Below are positions 2,857 through 58,619 of a stretch of DNA of 64,000 nt, piece after piece. The position numbers and the translations under genes are program-made. This stretch comes from a plasmid, in NCBI RefSeq assembly GCF_054482525.1, contig NZ_JBTHVG010000003.1. One strand, 5' to 3'. Numbering within the stretch: position 1 is the first letter of the stretch; each line of letters opens with the position of its first letter. The notes beneath the pieces are model-generated. The model saw only the letters and a list, made by a program, of their open reading frames with translations. It did no database searches and was not told the DNA's origin.

Positions 2857-4940
2857 TGTCAGATTCGAAGAGGACTAACCTCCATGCACAAGAGAATTTT
2901 TATCGGCCTATTCTTGAGTATCGTAGTGCCTCAATACTTTTGATTTGTTCGGTTTCTATGCTTTATATGGGACTTTCTTCAGACGGACTGGACATCGCCC
3001 CAATAGTTCTGTTCACCTCAATATTGCTTTTTTTGCTGTGCCTTTATCGTTGCAAAACAGCAGCGCCATTCTTGATGGCTCATTGGCGTGTATTCAAGCG
3101 ACATTTCATGTTCGTTAGTCTTGATTCACTGCGTGTAATTAACAAAAGTAACTTTTTCTCCAATGAGCGAAAGTATCGTCAACTGGTTCAGGATTATCAA
3201 AATAAAAATAAGGATATACCCGAGCGAAAGTCCTATTTTTGTGATGGGTTTGAGTGGGGCCCGGAACATGCGGATCGGGCATATCAAATAGCTAACCTCT
3301 CCAGTGATAAACGTGAGATCGAGTTGCCATTCGTCTTCAACCCAATTAAGAGACATTTTGACGCAATGGCTCGTAAGATGGGCGGCAGCAATGCAATTTT
3401 TGCTGTGGAACGTAGGGAACCCATATTTGTAACTGAAGACAATTGGTTTGGTCATACTCTGATAACCGGAAACGTGGGTACCGGGAAAACGGTGCTACAG
3501 CGTTTACTAAGCATTAGCATGCTTCATCTTGGTCATGTTGTTGTTGTCATAGATCCAAAGAACGATGCAGAGTGGCGAGAATCTCTAATGGAAGAGGCTA
3601 AGACCCTCGGTCTTCCTTTCTATAAATTTCATCCTGGCCAGCCAGCATCTTCGGTCTGTATTGATGTCTGCAACACCTATACTAATGTTTCTGACCTAAC
3701 ATCTCGTCTTTTGAGCTTGGTGACAGTTCCCGGTGAGGTTAACCCATTCGTTCAGTATGCCAAGGCTCTCGTTTCCAATGTGATTTCCGGGCTTTCTTAC
3801 ATAGAGAAAAAGCCTTCTATTTATCTGATTCACAAGAACATGAAAAGCCACATGTCTATTGTGAATCTTACAGTCAAGGTAATGGAGTCATGTTACGCGA
3901 GATATTATGGTTACGATGTCTGGACCGAAAAAGTTAAGTACGTCGCTAACGAAACCTTGCCGGTACGTTTCAAGCGTCTCGCTGAATGGTTTACGGCTCA
4001 TTTCATGAATTACGAGGGGTCCGAACAAATAGACTGGTTAGATACTGTTTCCCAGCTTATTGATTACTCAATGTCCGACCCAGAGCATATGGCTAAAATG
4101 ACCGCAGGTATTATGCCTGTTTTCGATATGCTCATTGAAAAACCTTTAAATGAGCTTTTATCTCCTAACCCGAACTCAGTATCATCAAGAGAAATTGTAA
4201 CAAGCGAAGGGATGTTCAGCACTGGCGGGGTGCTATACATTTCGCTTGATGGCCTTTCAAACCCCGATACAGCAGCTGCTATTTCTCAATTAATAATGTC
4301 AGATCTGACCTCCTGTGCCGGTAGTCGCTACAACGCTCAGGATGGTGATATGTCAGCTAATTCCAGGATAAGTATTTTTGTTGATGAGGCACACTCAGCC
4401 ATTAACAACCCTATGATTAACCTTCTGGCGCAGGGTCGTGCAGCGAAAATTGCACTGTTTATTTGCACCCAAACCATCTCCGACTTTATTGCTGCGGCAA
4501 GTGTTGAAACTGCCAATCGAATTACGGGGCTCTGCAACAATTATATAAGCTTGCGAGTCAACGATACTCCTACTCAGACGCTTGTTGTAGAGAACTTTGG
4601 TAAGAGTGCGATAAGCACAAATATGGTCACTTATACGACCGGTTCAGAAACATCTTTGCCGCATAATAACTTCTCAGGTTCAATCTCAGAAAGAAAGCAG
4701 ACAACTTTAGAAGAGAGTATTCCAAAGGATCTCTTGGGTCAGGTCCCTATGTTTCACATAGTTGCCAGGCTTCAAGATGGCAGGAAGGTTGTAGGCCAAA
4801 TCCCTATTGCTGTTGCTGAGAAACAAATGAAGCCAAACACAACTCTGTCGGAAATGCTTTTCAAGAAGGCCGGAAAAGTTACTTTGCGTCAAAATCTCGA
4901 TATCAAAAATCTTAATAAATTTCTAAGGAAGTTTCATTGA
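2856..4940 (+). CDS. Type IV coupling protein (TraD/TraG/VirD4-like ATPase)
   Basis: N-terminal transmembrane helices, Walker A GNVGTGKT, Walker B IFVDEAH; 694 aa; translationally coupled to the relaxase gene. Confidence 0.7.
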   Translation: MSDSKRTNLHAQENFYRPILEYRSASILLICSVSMLYMGLSSDGLDIAPIVLFTSILLFLLCLYRCKTAAPFLMAHWRVFKRHFMFVSLDSLRVINKSNFFSNERKYRQLVQDYQNKNKDIPERKSYFCDGFEWGPEHADRAYQIANLSSDKREIELPFVFNPIKRHFDAMARKMGGSNAIFAVERREPIFVTEDNWFGHTLITGNVGTGKTVLQRLLSISMLHLGHVVVVIDPKNDAEWRESLMEEAKTLGLPFYKFHPGQPASSVCIDVCNTYTNVSDLTSRLLSLVTVPGEVNPFVQYAKALVSNVISGLSYIEKKPSIYLIHKNMKSHMSIVNLTVKVMESCYARYYGYDVWTEKVKYVANETLPVRFKRLAEWFTAHFMNYEGSEQIDWLDTVSQLIDYSMSDPEHMAKMTAGIMPVFDMLIEKPLNELLSPNPNSVSSREIVTSEGMFSTGGVLYISLDGLSNPDTAAAISQLIMSDLTSCAGSRYNAQDGDMSANSRISIFVDEAHSAINNPMINLLAQGRAAKIALFICTQTISDFIAAASVETANRITGLCNNYISLRVNDTPTQTLVVENFGKSAISTNMVTYTTGSETSLPHNNFSGSISERKQTTLEESIPKDLLGQVPMFHIVARLQDGRKVVGQIPIAVAEKQMKPNTTLSEMLFKKAGKVTLRQNLDIKNLNKFLRKFH
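3145..3155. promoter_or_regulatory. 13-bp palindrome copy (AAAAGTAACTTTT), inside the coupling-protein CDS
   Basis: Exact core AAAGTAACTTT. Confidence 0.4.
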
Positions 4941-6049
4941 TGGATGAAAAAATTGTCCTGACGCGCCAGCAAATTTTAAGCTCTGCACTAAAAGTCAGCA
5001 AATGTCGCTCGCTCGTAAAAAGGCGCTTTCAGTCTTTGGGTTTAAAGTACGCAGATTCTCAGGAAGTTCGAGATCGGCTAACTAAGATAGAAAAAAACGC
5101 GTTTCATCATTTGGGAAAATTTTGTCAGAGCAACGATATCGATTCCCTATTCTCCATGGCAAATACCCTGTCTGAGCTTTTCCTTTTAAAGGGAGAGTTG
5201 ATCACGACTGATCCCTTTGGGGACCGTGAAACCAGCTACTGGTCGGTACCACAAGGTTCATGCCATGAATGGATTCAATCGCTGACCACCAGCGAAGGTC
5301 CTGAACGTAAATTCGTTAGTTTCCGTATTTCTTTCGATAACAATGACGAACGGTGTGATCTTGTAAAGAAGAATGCCCGTATGCTTGGTTGTTATCTTTT
5401 GCCTTATTTCGTCGATTTGACACGCACGGTGGGCGCATTCATTAATTTGCCAGGTAGTGTCTCTTTTAAACAAGTACAGCGCATCAAACCCCAGATTCAT
5501 CCAGAAACAACACATAGTCATATAGTTACTATTGAGGACTCTCCCTTTCTTTCTCGGTTAAAATTTAAAATCATTACTGCCATAGATCGGCTTCCTGACC
5601 CTAATGGCCTTTATACAAACACCTTTAACAGCATTATTGACCGTGCACTGCTGACTCATCTCAAAACCGAACAGGAAAAAATAGATAGTCCAAGAGTCTG
5701 CAAAAATGTGATTTCGGCTTTTGCCGACTCAACTCTTTCTCTGCCGGTGTTTAACATCGGCCTAAACGAGCAGTACAGATACTGGACGCCGTGGGGCATC
5801 AACTTTATAGAATTTTCCCGCCAGGCCGCAAAAGTAAGGACCGCTGTATTTGTTCCTGATGTGGGACAGATCGAGTGGAAAAGCGCAGAGCATAAAGAAC
5901 TGGCGGAGTTAAGCCTCATCGACCAAATCATACCTAAACAGTACCACTGGCTCCTGGGTATCCCGACGATGTGGCGTAACAACTATTGCAATCACGATCA
6001 GAGGCTAGCTCTTTTTCGTGAATGGAGGGAAAGCAATGGCTGCGGATAA
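4940..6049 (+). CDS. Hypothetical protein co-transcribed with the coupling protein
   Basis: ATG overlaps the upstream stop (TGATG); 369-aa ORF; no recognised motif. Confidence 0.5.
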   Translation: MDEKIVLTRQQILSSALKVSKCRSLVKRRFQSLGLKYADSQEVRDRLTKIEKNAFHHLGKFCQSNDIDSLFSMANTLSELFLLKGELITTDPFGDRETSYWSVPQGSCHEWIQSLTTSEGPERKFVSFRISFDNNDERCDLVKKNARMLGCYLLPYFVDLTRTVGAFINLPGSVSFKQVQRIKPQIHPETTHSHIVTIEDSPFLSRLKFKIITAIDRLPDPNGLYTNTFNSIIDRALLTHLKTEQEKIDSPRVCKNVISAFADSTLSLPVFNIGLNEQYRYWTPWGINFIEFSRQAAKVRTAVFVPDVGQIEWKSAEHKELAELSLIDQIIPKQYHWLLGIPTMWRNNYCNHDQRLALFREWRESNGCG

Positions 6050-6698
6050 TACAAGCAGAGCAGCAGTGCTCAGAACAATGCTTTTTTTTGGCATGGTCAT
6101 TTATTTTGGTTACAGCCTGGCTTTCCAGAATACTGAGGAGCTCAAATATCAGATTACTCAGGAGGTTAATGCAAGCCGGTCCATCATATCAAATGACCGT
6201 TGGAAGTCTGTTATTGCAAATAGTGAAGCGACTTTAAATTGGTTGGTACATGACTATAAGTTAATTGACTATCTGAATACTATTCTGATCCCTGACACCA
6301 AAAAACCAGCCAGAGGTATTAACATTGTTGCTGAAAAATTTACCTCTATTAATTACACTATGGCCAAAAACATACCCCTCTTACTTTATCAGTCCATTTT
6401 CCGGTGGAACTTAATCCTGGGGTGGCTAATCGTTTTTCTGCCCTATCTATTTGCCATGCTAGCAGATGGAATGTACCAGTGGAAATTGAAGAGGTACGTA
6501 TTTGGTAAGGTTACAGTTCAGTTTTATCGTATTTGGTTTCGAGCATTTTGGGTGATCAGTGCTTTAACGATGGTCTACCTGGTCATGCCGAATATGTCAC
6601 TATTTAACAATATCGCTCAACTTTTCCCACCAGTCGCTTTATTGATACTGGGAATTGCATTGAATCGCTTGTGGTCTAACTTTCAAAAACTCATGTAA
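6036..6698 (+). CDS. Hypothetical inner-membrane protein
   Basis: ATG at 6036 preceded by GGAGGG; several hydrophobic helices; overlaps the upstream gene end by 14 nt. Confidence 0.5.
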   Translation: MAADNTSRAAVLRTMLFFGMVIYFGYSLAFQNTEELKYQITQEVNASRSIISNDRWKSVIANSEATLNWLVHDYKLIDYLNTILIPDTKKPARGINIVAEKFTSINYTMAKNIPLLLYQSIFRWNLILGWLIVFLPYLFAMLADGMYQWKLKRYVFGKVTVQFYRIWFRAFWVISALTMVYLVMPNMSLFNNIAQLFPPVALLILGIALNRLWSNFQKLM

Positions 6699-6708
6699 AG
6701 GTGGTCAG

Positions 6709-58387: not shown

Positions 58388-58543
58388 ATGATGCTCCGGG
58401 AATAGGTTATAGCCTTATTCTACGGATTCAGCCTACAAGGTCCGGTCGGATAAAGTGATAATTTGCCTGTTAAAAGAGACATCAAGTGAGAAAGCAACCA
58501 ACGTACAGAATGCAAAATGGCGGCAGTGCATCTGGATGACGCA

Positions 58544-58554
58544 AAAGTAACTTT
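58544..58554. promoter_or_regulatory. Palindrome copy upstream of Ig-like paralog 3
   Basis: AAAAGTAACTTTTT, about 160 nt upstream of the start at 58387. Confidence 0.5.
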
Positions 58555-58608
58555 TTGTATCCACTTTTTTGGATTTTAGCCTTCAAAATGAGTATTCAAC
58601 CAATCATA

Positions 58609-58619
58609 AAAGTAACTTT
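58609..58619. promoter_or_regulatory. Palindrome copy upstream of Ig-like paralog 3
   Basis: AAAAGTAACTTTTG, about 225 nt upstream of the start at 58387. Confidence 0.5.

Follow-up and report, generated by a model that had tools for sequence, protein, structure and literature searches.

A 13-bp palindrome, AAAAGT-W-ACTTTT, recurs along the 64,000-nucleotide stretch of DNA analysed here (the window), which is IncHI2 plasmid backbone, and we found no published description of it in the literature. Are its copies a dispersed set of binding sites and, if so, which protein reads them?

Occurrence of the palindrome in the window and beyond

As shown in Table 1, the core AAAGTWACTTT occurs exactly 14 times in the 64-kb window against 0.03 copies expected, and no shuffled window held more than one copy. 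An earlier, sequence-only reading had listed 13 positions and estimated about 0.03 copies by chance. Our recomputation returned the same estimate and found the motif far above chance, but the list had missed the copy at 4875, and its entry at 47928 belongs at 47929. Only four further matches carried one mismatch (1.8 expected), and thus the palindrome family is unusually exact; two of the four have C at the centre (1707 and 43109). Beyond the core, the copies had in common only A/T at -6/+6 and a weak G/C at -7/+7. The TCC(C/T)GG tail that had been ascribed to many of them proved to be a tendency in about 4-5 of the 14.

Table 1. Palindrome copies, variants and the candidate binder gene in the window, with counterparts in R27
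Feature	Position	Strand	Context in the window	R27 counterpart or remark
Centre-C variant AAAGTCACTTT, possible site	1707..1717		In MobH relaxase gene; both arms intact	Copy not conserved
Exact site AAAGTAACTTT	3145..3155		In coupling-protein (TraG/TraD) gene, CDS nt +289	Orthologous position 103600; K-S-N-F codons identical
Exact site AAAGTTACTTT	4875..4885		In coupling-protein gene, nt +2019; ~55 nt ahead of the operon's next ORF	Orthologous position 101870; single difference is the degenerate centre base (GTT vs GTA)
Exact intergenic site	9777..9787		Centre 169 nt upstream of minus-strand gene 9329-9613	97181, likewise 169 nt upstream of the ortholog (protein 52% identical)
ParBl-1, orphan ParB-family protein, 394 aa	13551..14735	-	Assigned by Pfam, PHROG and fold	R0104
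Exact proximal site	14826..14836		Centre 96 nt upstream of ParBl-1 gene	92231, kept amid diverged flanks
Exact distal site	14952..14962		Centre 222 nt upstream of ParBl-1 gene	92113, kept
Exact intergenic site	24741..24751		Centre 146 nt upstream of small minus-strand gene 24397-24600	85552, in the corresponding region, downstream of DUF3085 ortholog
Exact intergenic site	26948..26958		Centre 157 nt upstream of minus-strand gene 26476-26796	No counterpart identified
Exact intergenic site	29679..29689		138 nt upstream of 29307-29546, directly downstream of PAPS-reductase-family gene	72184, same place after orthologous PAPS-reductase gene; surrounding DNA unalignable
One-mismatch copy AAAGTAGCTTT	30950..30960		In PAPS-reductase-family gene; one arm mismatch	70907, exact; window copy probably a decayed or weak site
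Exact intergenic site	34728..34738		Centre 212 nt upstream of minus-strand gene 34195-34521	67018, upstream of the ortholog (protein 62% identical)
Exact intergenic site	38940..38950		Centre 176 nt upstream of minus-strand gene 38392-38769	
Centre-C variant AAAGTCACTTT, possible site	43109..43119		In Ig-like gene 41618-44035	
Exact intragenic site	47929..47939		In Ig-like gene 47629-50049, nt +300	No counterpart found
Exact site	50153..50163		~100 nt 3' of Ig-like gene 47629-50049	
Exact intergenic site	58544..58554		Centre 162 nt upstream of minus-strand Ig-like gene 55931-58387	Single site 48737, 183 nt upstream of the ortholog (81% identical)
Exact site, second of the 58544 pair	58609..58619		Centre 227 nt upstream of Ig-like gene 55931-58387	

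Since the copies have no common sequence past the 13-bp core, they are free-standing sites, and their unrelated flanks leave no sign of the longer mobile element that had been considered as their possible source. Elsewhere the same 11-mer can arise in that way: in genome bins of ruminant-gut Clostridia it occurs in pairs within a long GC-rich repeat, and many further genome matches are regularly spaced tandem arrays. For the IncHI copies, an origin by chance, by base composition or as pieces of a repeated or mobile element has a negligible probability and is refuted by the shuffles, by the unrelated flanks and by the retention of sites at orthologous positions across diverged plasmids.

The set is real, as had been claimed, but it is not local to the 64 kb: it spans the whole IncHI backbone with about 42 copies per plasmid, namely 42 exact copies in the 276-kb IncHI2 plasmid pSTM6-275 and 42 in R27 (IncHI1). 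Among dispersed palindromes with arms of 5-6 and gaps of 0-12, it is by far the commonest on both plasmids. Exact copies in R27 outnumbered one-mismatch copies by 42 to 17, an exactness that is typical of parS/OB-type sites. Comparison with unrelated sequence, which had been proposed as a check, gave a clear difference: the backbone has 0.21-0.26 sites per kb, whereas the density was 0.015 per kb in the 69 kb of acquired DNA, and the 40 kb of an IncC plasmid that we searched had no copy. These sites are free-standing and restricted to the backbone. The motif recurs in at least five further IncHI-like lineages, and was found in Klebsiella IncHI1B/FIB-type, Yersinia intermedia, Leclercia-type, K. 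grimontii, Pluralibacter and Photorhabdus elements as well as in metagenomic relatives.

Placement of the sites and selection on the DNA word

The sequence-only reading had described the sites as operators upstream of genes. In the window, ten copies are indeed intergenic and lie 96-227 nt upstream of minus-strand gene starts, and one lies 3' of an Ig-like gene; three copies, not two, lie in coding sequence (3145, 4875 and 47929). The intergenic share was 11/14 in the window and 21/42 in R27, in DNA that is 20-24% non-coding (p about 2-3e-5), a 2.5- to 3-fold enrichment that falls mainly on the 5' side of genes. The distance from site to promoter-like hexamers was variable, with no fixed spacing found. 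Because about half of the copies plasmid-wide are intragenic and conserved, "operator upstream of genes" covers only part of the set. Spacing along the plasmid was more even than random (CV 0.73 vs 0.97), clusters of sites adjoin the rep genes and oriT, and two sites flank the oriT/H-operon promoter region in both IncHI1 and IncHI2.

Comparison of R27 with IncHI2 revealed that, of the 20 R27 sites located within genes, 15 have every one of their 10 arm bases unchanged at the orthologous IncHI2 position. Only 5.1% of control windows from these genes were conserved to this degree (p about 5e-16). The centre base varies freely, and the DNA word itself is therefore under selection. At the traG sites, constrained codons were identical in 7 of 7 cases, compared with a gene-wide fraction of 0.39 among conserved degenerate codons. 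Intergenic sites stood out as conserved islands amid diverged DNA, and at some orthologous positions centre variants stand in for exact sites. The palindromes are under purifying selection as DNA, even inside genes, and are conserved across lineages whose ParBl-1 proteins are only 35-65% identical.

Such a pattern could also arise if another binder, either plasmid-encoded or a host factor, used the sites mainly for architecture, in compaction, positioning, segregation or protection of a large plasmid and not in gene regulation, like MatP/matS, SlmA/SBS or Noc/NBS. The conserved intragenic half, the even spacing, the clusters beside rep genes and oriT and the loose promoter geometry all suit this explanation, and most IncHI backbone proteins are uncharacterised, so that any of them could be the binder. 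We nevertheless consider it rather doubtful. The intergenic enrichment, mostly 5' of genes, speaks against a purely architectural set, and the motif matches none of the E. coli regulator consensus sequences known to us. Acquired DNA has hardly any copies and the 40 kb of the IncC plasmid, which lives in the same hosts, has none, so that there is no sign of selection for the motif by a host protein. Furthermore, three orphan ParB-like HTH proteins are encoded on IncHI plasmids, and no other target has been assigned to them.

ParB-family proteins as candidate binders

Our best reading, to which we give a probability of about 0.5, is that the palindromes are binding or loading sites of such a plasmid-encoded orphan ParB-family HTH protein, with ParBl-1 as the best candidate, and that they form a set of ParB-type sites like those of KorB, BisD and VirB. 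By analogy with these proteins on OB, bisS and virS, a ParBl dimer would read the 13-bp palindrome through its HTH. About 40 such sites would be available at fairly regular intervals along the IncHI backbone, in intergenic DNA that carries promoters, within genes, at oriT and beside rep genes, and the tandem sites ahead of the protein's own gene would allow autoregulation. Backbone gene expression could then be controlled by a bound repressor, or by a clamp that reaches promoters at variable distances. We infer ParB-like binding, and the paralog responsible, from these parallels; the effect may be repression, activation or H-NS anti-silencing, and CTP-dependent sliding may be involved.

The earlier assignment of gene 13551-14735 to the ParB/KorB family agrees with our domain, family and fold searches. 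Pfam placed an HTH_ParB domain at residues 149-209 and PHROG 1033 (ParB-like) covered residues 24-255, while the PDB sequence match was the HTH of Caulobacter ParB. The AF2 model, with pLDDT above 90 across most of residues 17-255, had as its top Foldseek matches ParB-CTPgammaS, KorB-KorA-DNA (8qa9; TM-score 0.67, the best among these top matches), ParB-parS and Noc-NBS. The predicted layout comprises a ParB N-domain, the HTH, a disordered linker and C-terminal helices, and the gene has no adjacent ParA. Box II reads QGACRxRA, with the G and the R80-equivalent arginine present and an invariant Cys in place of Arg, and box III is GNSNL, not ENxxR. Because the nucleotide-binding motifs are only partly kept, a CTP-driven clamp is doubtful. 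In R27, R0104 belongs to the better expressed genes at both 25 and 37 C, with about 2,200 units (PMC7366339, supplementary tables).

The two sites that had been noticed ahead of this gene were confirmed. Their spacing is 126 nt in the window, and the R27 and Yersinia-lineage pairs are 118 and 101 nt apart, respectively. The proximal site has equivalents in Klebsiella, Yersinia and Leclercia-type lineages. Counts over the 260-870 nt ahead of the ParBl-1 gene were 2, 2, 6, 2 and 1 sites in five lineages, the six-site array being that of the Klebsiella lineage. The recognition helix S-x-x-H-[LV]-R was kept down to 35% identity wherever the motif was kept. Co-occurrence of motif and ParB-like homologs, suggested earlier as a check, held in these five lineages but is not complete: pCF10-tmexCD1 carries the sites and lacks ParBl-1, a deletion that may be recent. 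In addition, a ParBl-1-like homolog, L095, is accompanied by dispersed sites with none directly upstream. The assignment to ParBl-1 in particular is not secure; its main basis is the sites ahead of the ParBl-1 gene, whose presence is in part due to common descent.

The binder might instead be one of the two paralogs encoded outside the window, ParBl-2 (R0042) or ParBl-3, with 13551-14735 merely a regulated target. Exact sites precede ParBl-2 orthologs in three other lineages: at 43-130 nt in two metagenomic ones, and as two upstream sites in K. grimontii. A conserved one-mismatch copy, AAAGTACCTTT, lies 80-95 nt upstream of ParBl-2 in IncHI1, IncHI2 and a Citrobacter IncHI1B plasmid. R0042 is also the highest expressed of the paralogs (about 6,100 units), and the retention of sites in pCF10-tmexCD1 would be explained. 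However, ParBl-1 alone among the paralogs has exact tandem upstream sites in both IncHI1 and IncHI2, and alone has the six-site Klebsiella-lineage array, and we regard a paralog as an unlikely binder in its place. The recognition helices differ among the three, so at most one is expected to read the palindrome. For the partition ParB, separate tandem repeats of 52-54 bp lie upstream of parA, and this protein is therefore not an obvious binder.

Conjugation regulators and related site systems

Most R27 genes are controlled by the activators TrhR/TrhY and their antagonist HtdA (PMC7366339), and the palindrome could be the cis element through which TrhR/TrhY bind and activate plasmid-wide. Mutation of htdA derepresses 139 of 181 expressed R27 genes, 106 of them non-tra, and no cis element of the circuit has been described (PMC7366339). 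The promoters of genes reported to be HtdA-independent (parAB, mucAB, tet, transposases) lack a site. In IncHI1 and IncHI2 alike, trhR is preceded by a site at about 80 nt and the oriT/H-operon pair is present, and TrhY has a CxxC-x13-CxxC zinc ribbon like activator subunits of the FlhC/BisC type. In contrast, neither R27 nor IncHI2 has a copy, with up to one mismatch allowed, in the intergenic DNA ahead of the F operon, even though the F promoter is the standard reporter, whose chromosomal fusion responds strongly to TrhR/TrhY and HtdA. This makes the circuit a quite unlikely source of the binder. The R27 Z and AN promoters likewise lack an exact copy and the AC promoter has a centre variant only, while the R operon has a site and is reportedly not HtdA-regulated. 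We found no recognisable DNA-binding domain in TrhR, TrhY or HtdA; a perfect short palindrome suits a homodimer more than a heteromer, and conserved intragenic sites without fixed promoter spacing match a classical activator box poorly. In Klebsiella plasmids the motif is found together with TrhR homologs, and trhR has its own upstream site; presence or absence across plasmids therefore does not discriminate between binders. No interaction of ParBl-1 with TrhR/TrhY is known.

For the ParB-type reading, a close model is KorB of RK2. RK2 carries 12 OB sites in 60 kb, and its KorB is encoded with the ParA protein IncC and doubles as the partition protein. Both KorB (PMC11790492) and ParBl-1 are plasmid ParB-family proteins with an N-domain, HTH, linker and C-terminal domain. 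The analogy with OB that had been drawn from the sequence fits: the OB core TTTAGC-S-GCTAAA and the IncHI palindrome are both 13-bp, 6+1+6 sites with a degenerate centre, present in many dispersed copies at variable promoter distances. Each set includes a copy at the operon of the regulator itself, and each is associated with the global control of backbone genes. Unlike RK2, the IncHI plasmids have about 42 sites in 180-276 kb, about half of them intragenic and conserved, and partition is left to a separate ParAB. ParBl-1 shows about 19% identity to KorB over the aligned fold and does not keep box III of the CTP pocket. We found no KorA-like partner or second operator family in IncHI.

Variable promoter distance, conserved intragenic sites and even spacing also agree with what PMC11790492 and PMC12409273 describe for ParB-type regulators. 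The latter concerns BisD of ICEclc, the ParB-like protein of a conjugative element, in which a long linker is combined with a distinct C-terminal domain. BisD loads at palindromic bisS sites within genes and acts long-range on transfer-gene promoters with the FlhC-like partner BisC (PMC12409273), to which the TrhR/TrhY pair, with the FlhC-like zinc ribbon of TrhY, would be the IncHI parallel. ICEclc differs in having only two bisS, with 11-bp-arm repeats, from which BisD slides about 50 kb, as against some 40 short sites in IncHI, and BisD keeps GxxR and ENxxR where ParBl-1 keeps part of box II only. VirB of the Shigella virulence plasmid is another ParB-like orphan that lacks a ParA partner; its plasmid is large and silenced by H-NS, and virS palindromes lie at variable distances upstream of target promoters (PMC10770331). 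H-NS/Hha control conjugation and many genes of IncHI (PMC7366339). However, VirB is a CTP-dependent anti-silencer with few sites, and in GC content the IncHI site flanks do not differ from intergenic or coding DNA taken at random, with no indication of an H-NS-bound location.

The Noc/NBS, MatP/matS and SlmA/SBS systems each comprise tens of near-perfect palindromes of 12-16 bp, located in genes as well as between them, and one dedicated dimeric protein that binds them. Noc, itself a paralog of ParB, was one of the top structural matches to ParBl-1, but these three systems organise chromosomes or time cell division and do not regulate genes, and ParBl-1 has no evident membrane-targeting helix or division link. 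Finally, HerB (YfjB), encoded in the leading region of the F plasmid, is an orphan ParB-like protein among establishment-type genes, which is reported to bind the host chromosome without an identifiable motif and to reprogramme host metabolism (bioRxiv, PMC13370423). In contrast, the IncHI motif is sharply defined and lies on the plasmid itself, and the ParBl-1 gene is expressed at steady state.

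The palindrome and its plasmid setting

The window proved to be IncHI2 conjugative plasmid backbone, with 100% identity to many Escherichia and Salmonella plasmids of 210-280 kb, pSTM6-275 among them, and the matching plasmids were typed IncHI2A / MOBH / MPF_F. Its beginning lies in the MobH relaxase gene (Tra1 region), and from there it continues through the coupling-protein operon into a stretch of about 35 kb whose small genes, for the most part uncharacterised, are all encoded on the minus strand; among them are hok, genes for DNA methyltransferases, one of the PAPS-reductase family and a ParB-like gene. 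It ends with genes for Ig-like proteins and RepHI2. Collinearity with pSTM6-275 extended only to about 44.5 kb, beyond which pNB4833-1 was the better match.

An exact search of the window for the 11-mer AAAGTWACTTT returned 14 copies, and dinucleotide-preserving shuffles gave a mean of 0.03 and a maximum of 1, so that the chance expectation of about 0.03 in the sequence-only reading held. The dispersed palindrome set that it described is confirmed: its thirteen positions were recovered, one of them (47928) corrected to 47929, and a copy at 4875 had been missed. With one mismatch allowed, just four more matches appeared where 1.8 were expected, and two of the four were the centre-only variants AAAGTCACTTT. 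When the copies were aligned in either orientation, the common part was a 13-bp core, AAAAGT-W-ACTTTT, together with a weak G/C at -7/+7; the 6+1+6 architecture had sharp edges, with no information outside the core. A TCCYGG tail, earlier said to follow the copies often, was a mere tendency of 4 or 5 of them. Because the flanks are unrelated beyond the core, the copies are free-standing sites and not pieces of a longer repeat, a check set beforehand; a repeated mobile element of MITE or REP type is thereby ruled out. No copy was found inside the four insertion sequences of the window.

Eleven of the 14 copies were non-coding, as compared with about 24% of the window (p = 3e-5), and ten of these eleven lay 96-227 nt upstream of minus-strand gene starts, in agreement with the roughly 90-230 nt first noted. 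For each oriented site, the best downstream pair of sigma-70-like hexamers showed no favoured distance, and AT-rich, H-NS-like surroundings of the sites were not seen. By its length and sequence, the motif is probably not a target of restriction or methylation, a Tus/ter site or the site of a known E. coli regulator. Sites also occurred inside two of the Ig-like paralogs (about 800 aa each), 3' of one and upstream of one, and these genes seem densely tied into the motif network.

Conservation and distribution of the palindrome

For motif counts, pSTM6-275 (275,801 bp) and the IncHI1 plasmid R27 (180,461 bp) were assembled from fetched pieces. Each carried 42 exact copies, which far outnumbered degenerate ones, and the motif was by far the commonest dispersed palindrome on both plasmids (arms of 5-6, gaps of 0-12). 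Density was 0.21-0.26 per kb in the backbone segments (Tra2, par, Tra1/oriT, rep) and 0.015 per kb over 69 kb of acquired resistance and metal-resistance regions; a 15-kb IS26 region held zero copies, as did a 40-kb stretch of an IncC plasmid. Copies were also present at oriT and near rep genes. Spacing in R27 was more even than random, with a CV of 0.73 against a random mean of 0.97 and a 5th percentile of 0.76.

Orthologs of IncHI1 and IncHI2 with protein identities of 42-96% were then compared. Twenty intragenic sites of R27 had an ortholog in IncHI2, and 15 of them kept all ten arm bases at the aligned position, as compared with just 5.1% of the control 11-nt windows taken from these genes (binomial p ~5e-16); the centre base of the conserved sites varied freely (A, T or G). 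Within the coupling-protein gene, both sites stood at identical offsets (+289 and +2019) in IncHI1 and IncHI2, their sole difference was the centre base, and 7 of 7 constrained codons were identical, as compared with 39% of conserved degenerate codons gene-wide. R27 counterparts in diverged or unalignable DNA were found for the pair before the ParB-like gene, for the site after the PAPS-reductase gene, and for sites upstream of three small genes and one Ig-like gene; one intergenic site lay exactly 169 nt from its gene in the window plasmid and in R27 alike. Arm conservation at orthologous intragenic and intergenic positions therefore cannot be explained by chance, by base composition or by hitch-hiking on coding sequence. 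Judged from these alignments, selection acts on the DNA word itself.

Beyond these two plasmids, we counted 20 copies in 40 kb of a Klebsiella IncHI1B/FIB-type plasmid, 7 in 21 kb of a Yersinia intermedia contig and 5 in 21 kb of a Leclercia-type contig. A collection-wide scan for paired sites, the source of the K. grimontii, Pluralibacter gergoviae and Photorhabdus motif loci, yielded five further enterobacterial loci, and three metagenomic relatives likewise carry the motif. Most of the remaining matches were unrelated, regularly spaced tandem arrays, and the scan thus doubled as a negative control. The 11-mer pairs in ruminant-gut "Clostridia" bins (L036-L038, L045, L082, L083), about 110-130 nt apart, are the ends of a long GC-rich repeat, on one contig in a chromosomal origin region (rsmG, parA, noc/parB-like, serS, tmk); this repeat family is unrelated to the IncHI motif and contrasts with its free-standing copies. 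In a Klebsiella IncHI-like plasmid, a promoter-like element, GGGG(C)TTG...N16...TATCCTGG(G/T)T, preceded five genes, and at three of the five its -10-like hexamer followed the palindrome centre at a distance of 49-53 nt. This element was absent from the window and was site-linked only in the Klebsiella lineage.

A literature search returned no description of the literal motif, nor of IncHI palindromes or ParB-like binding sites, the older R27/R478 papers being outside its scope. Global regulators of plasmids that use iterated palindromic sites are a known kind, and it is the IncHI instance that appears new. Its set is unusually large (about 42 sites) and its comparative support unusually good.

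Coordinates of features in the window and in comparison plasmids
Feature	Replicon	Position	Strand
Centre-only variants AAAGTCACTTT	window	1707, 43109	
Gene of the ParB-like protein ParBl-1	window	13551-14735	-
Region with two further conserved blocks	window	14736-15150	-
Same region	R27	91850-92335	
Insertion sequences interrupting the backbone (IS421, IS150, IS91-family, IS3-family)	window	18595-19713, 20165-21534, 51024-52223, 58837-60110	
Ig-like paralog	window	41618-44035	-
Ig-like paralog	window	47629-50049	+
Ig-like paralog	window	55931-58387	-
AAAGTACCTTT upstream of ParBl-2	R27 (outside window)	45096	
AAAGTACCTTT upstream of ParBl-2	pSTM6-275 (outside window)	271140	
AAAGTACCTTT upstream of ParBl-2	L014 (outside window)	4742	
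Repeat array with CGATTAAGGGGGTTAAAT upstream of parA	R27	25652-27775	
Repeat array with CGATTAAGGGGGTTAAAT upstream of parA	pSTM6-275 (outside window)	12534-14489	
TrhY gene	IncHI2, L005 (outside window)	40322-40834	
Promoter-like element	Klebsiella IncHI-like, L011	6824, 12435, 13387, 17445, 18808	+
Palindrome ACTTTCACATGTGAAAGT	IncC pB557-NDM, L012	291, 3875, 4334, 9649, 12985, 24029, 27444	

ParB-like proteins as candidate binders

IncHI plasmids encode three orphan ParB-like paralogs (ParBl-1 to ParBl-3) and one conventional ParAB, and no ParA gene adjoins any of the ParBl genes; the third paralog lies at 40890-41966 in R27. ParBl-1, encoded in the window, has 394 aa, with Pfam HTH_ParB at residues 149-209 and a match to PHROG 1033 (ParB-like) over residues 24-255, and is similar in sequence to the DNA-binding domain of Caulobacter ParB. 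Its AlphaFold2 model was confident over most of residues 17-255, followed beyond residue 255 by a disordered linker of about 70 residues and by C-terminal helices. The best matches among solved structures were ParB-CTPgammaS, KorB-KorA-DNA, ParB-parS and Noc-NBS, KorB-KorA-DNA (8qa9) giving the highest TM score of the top matches (0.67). A box I-like GFNTR is present. Box II reads QGACRxRA, keeping the G and the R80-equivalent Arg, with an invariant Cys in place of the preceding Arg, and box III reads GNSNL as compared with ENxxR, so that E and R are missing. The nucleotide pocket is only partly canonical, with the ParB fold kept in the model, which makes a CTP-dependent sliding clamp no more than a possibility.

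The two copies said to precede this gene were confirmed as exact sites in IncHI2. Exact sites directly preceded ParBl-1 in all of the lineages examined: besides the IncHI2 pair, IncHI1 and Yersinia had two each, the Klebsiella type had six and the Leclercia type had one. One ParBl-1-like homolog had dispersed sites and none directly upstream. The recognition helix S-x-x-H-[LV]-R was kept down to 35% overall identity, a conservation that seems to match the invariance of the motif. No covariation in specificity was found: distant ParBl homologs either kept the same motif or were without an obvious palindrome (L098). In published microarrays, R0104, the R27 gene for ParBl-1, gave a signal of about 2,200 units at 25 °C and at 37 °C alike (supplement, PMC7366339); it was among the better expressed R27 genes and rose 2.6-fold in an htdA mutant (PMC7366339). 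Upstream of the gene, IncHI2 and IncHI1 also shared two extra conserved blocks: ATTTAAAACGGACGGATCG.GTA.TAT stood between the two palindromes, and TATTAGGAAA...TCGAACCTGGTATTGTTGT.TTGTAGCG was part of the leader. These blocks may be elements of the promoter or of the leader, or a further binding site.

ParBl-2 (R0042) adjoins dam outside the window. Exact sites lay 43 and 130 nt upstream of it in two metagenomic lineages, two sites preceded it in K. grimontii, and a one-mismatch copy, AAAGTACCTTT, was conserved 80-95 nt upstream in IncHI1, IncHI2 and a Citrobacter IncHI1B plasmid. These sites place ParBl-2 in the same regulon. The conservation of AAAGTACCTTT suggests a deliberately weaker site, and ParBl-2 itself could be the binder. 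The conventional ParAB does not suggest itself as the protein that reads the palindrome, because it has its own 52-54-bp tandem repeats with CGATTAAGGGGGTTAAAT upstream of parA; these arrays are presumably its centromere or incC region.

Proposed regulation through the palindromes

IncHI1, IncHI2 and IncHI-like Klebsiella plasmids rank among the chief carriers of multidrug, colistin and heavy-metal resistance in Enterobacterales, and IncHI-type megaplasmids play a major part in carrying mcr, ESBL and typhoid multidrug-resistance genes. Their regulation is known through genetics alone (HtdA, TrhR/TrhY, H-NS/Hha), with no cis element defined so far. HtdA counteracts the activators TrhR/TrhY, and an htdA mutation derepressed 139 of 181 expressed R27 genes, with no cis element described (PMC7366339). 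Most plasmid genes thus respond to htdA, yet this global regulation lacks a defined cis element, and the natural rival explanation is that the palindrome is the cis box of the TrhR/TrhY-HtdA regulon. We consider this unlikely. Motif copies do occur in the H promoter region, but the F-operon intergenic region has none with up to one mismatch in either R27 or IncHI2, although the F promoter is the standard reporter responsive to TrhR/TrhY and HtdA; the R27 Z and AN promoters also lack an exact copy, and AC has only a centre variant. Domain searches detected no DNA-binding domain in TrhR, TrhY or HtdA. The expected co-occurrence with ParB-like homologs was seen in Klebsiella plasmids, but TrhR homologs (28% identity) co-occur there as well, and accompanied the motif wherever they were looked for; since both accompany the motif, presence or absence across plasmids does not discriminate between them. 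TrhY ends in CEKC-x13-CPRC, a zinc-ribbon pattern of the FlhC type, which hints that TrhR/TrhY may belong to the FlhDC / AcaCD / SetCD / BisDC group of conjugation activators.

A ParB-family site set is the best reading of the palindromes; the binder and the operator mechanism are what we infer by analogy. The KorB-like operator set first suggested therefore stands as a ParB-type site set, but one that covers the whole plasmid backbone, with binder and operator role conditional. A ParBl regulator is proposed because the 13-bp palindromes are sharp and exact, their distance to promoter-like hexamers is variable, intragenic copies are conserved, sites occur at oriT and near rep genes, and tandem sites precede a ParB-like gene. 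A predicted ParBl dimer would bind the palindromes and from them control backbone transcription and its own synthesis; repression or activation/anti-silencing, sliding and a partner protein would be further, conjectural parts of this scheme. Alternatively, the role of the sites may be architectural, as it is for those of Noc, MatP or SlmA; this would fit their even spacing and the intragenic copies.

For the ParBl regulator, KorB offers one likeness: its OB operator, TTTAGC-S-GCTAAA, is also 6+1+6, and KorB can act on a promoter as far as 1.5 kb away (PMC11790492). KorB proper, however, works with ParA (IncC) and with KorA at OA sites, unlike the ParBl genes with no ParA beside them, and no second, OA-like family of dispersed palindromes was found on R27 or pSTM6-275 (arms of 5-6, gaps of 0-12). 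BisD resembles the IncHI case in its intragenic bisS sites (PMC12409273). In the BisD/BisC module, a ParB-like protein with a C-terminal activation domain works with an FlhC-like partner; the layout of linker and C-terminal helices in ParBl-1 is similar, TrhY carries an FlhC-like CxxC-x13-CxxC, and a cooperative arrangement with TrhR/TrhY, like that of BisD-BisC (PMC12409273), is possible. VirB/virS is another close model. The full proposal is that some 40 selected palindromes, half of them intragenic, are loading sites for an orphan ParB-like protein with an altered CTP pocket which, together with TrhR/TrhY-HtdA and H-NS and in the manner of BisD-BisC or VirB, switches nearly the whole backbone on and off. 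We give it a chance of only about one in five. If true, such a plasmid-wide switch would explain the global htdA effect and the thermosensitive transfer of IncHI-type megaplasmids. The conserved, backbone-wide word points to candidate proteins and to exact bases, including synonymous positions in genes, and offers a signature by which backbone DNA of the IncHI type can be recognised. It would also enlarge, by a natural case of many sites, the growing class of ParB-like proteins that control genes on mobile elements (KorB, BisD, VirB, HerB).

The IncC plasmid pB557-NDM has a dispersed palindrome of its own, the 18-bp ACTTTCACATGTGAAAGT, which differs from the IncHI motif and therefore allows no direct inference for it. 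It is parS-like and resembles a parallel operator set of the KorB type. Each of its 7 copies in 40 kb occupies a short gap between genes and closely precedes one of them; parA of the ParA/KorB-domain operon is among the genes so preceded.
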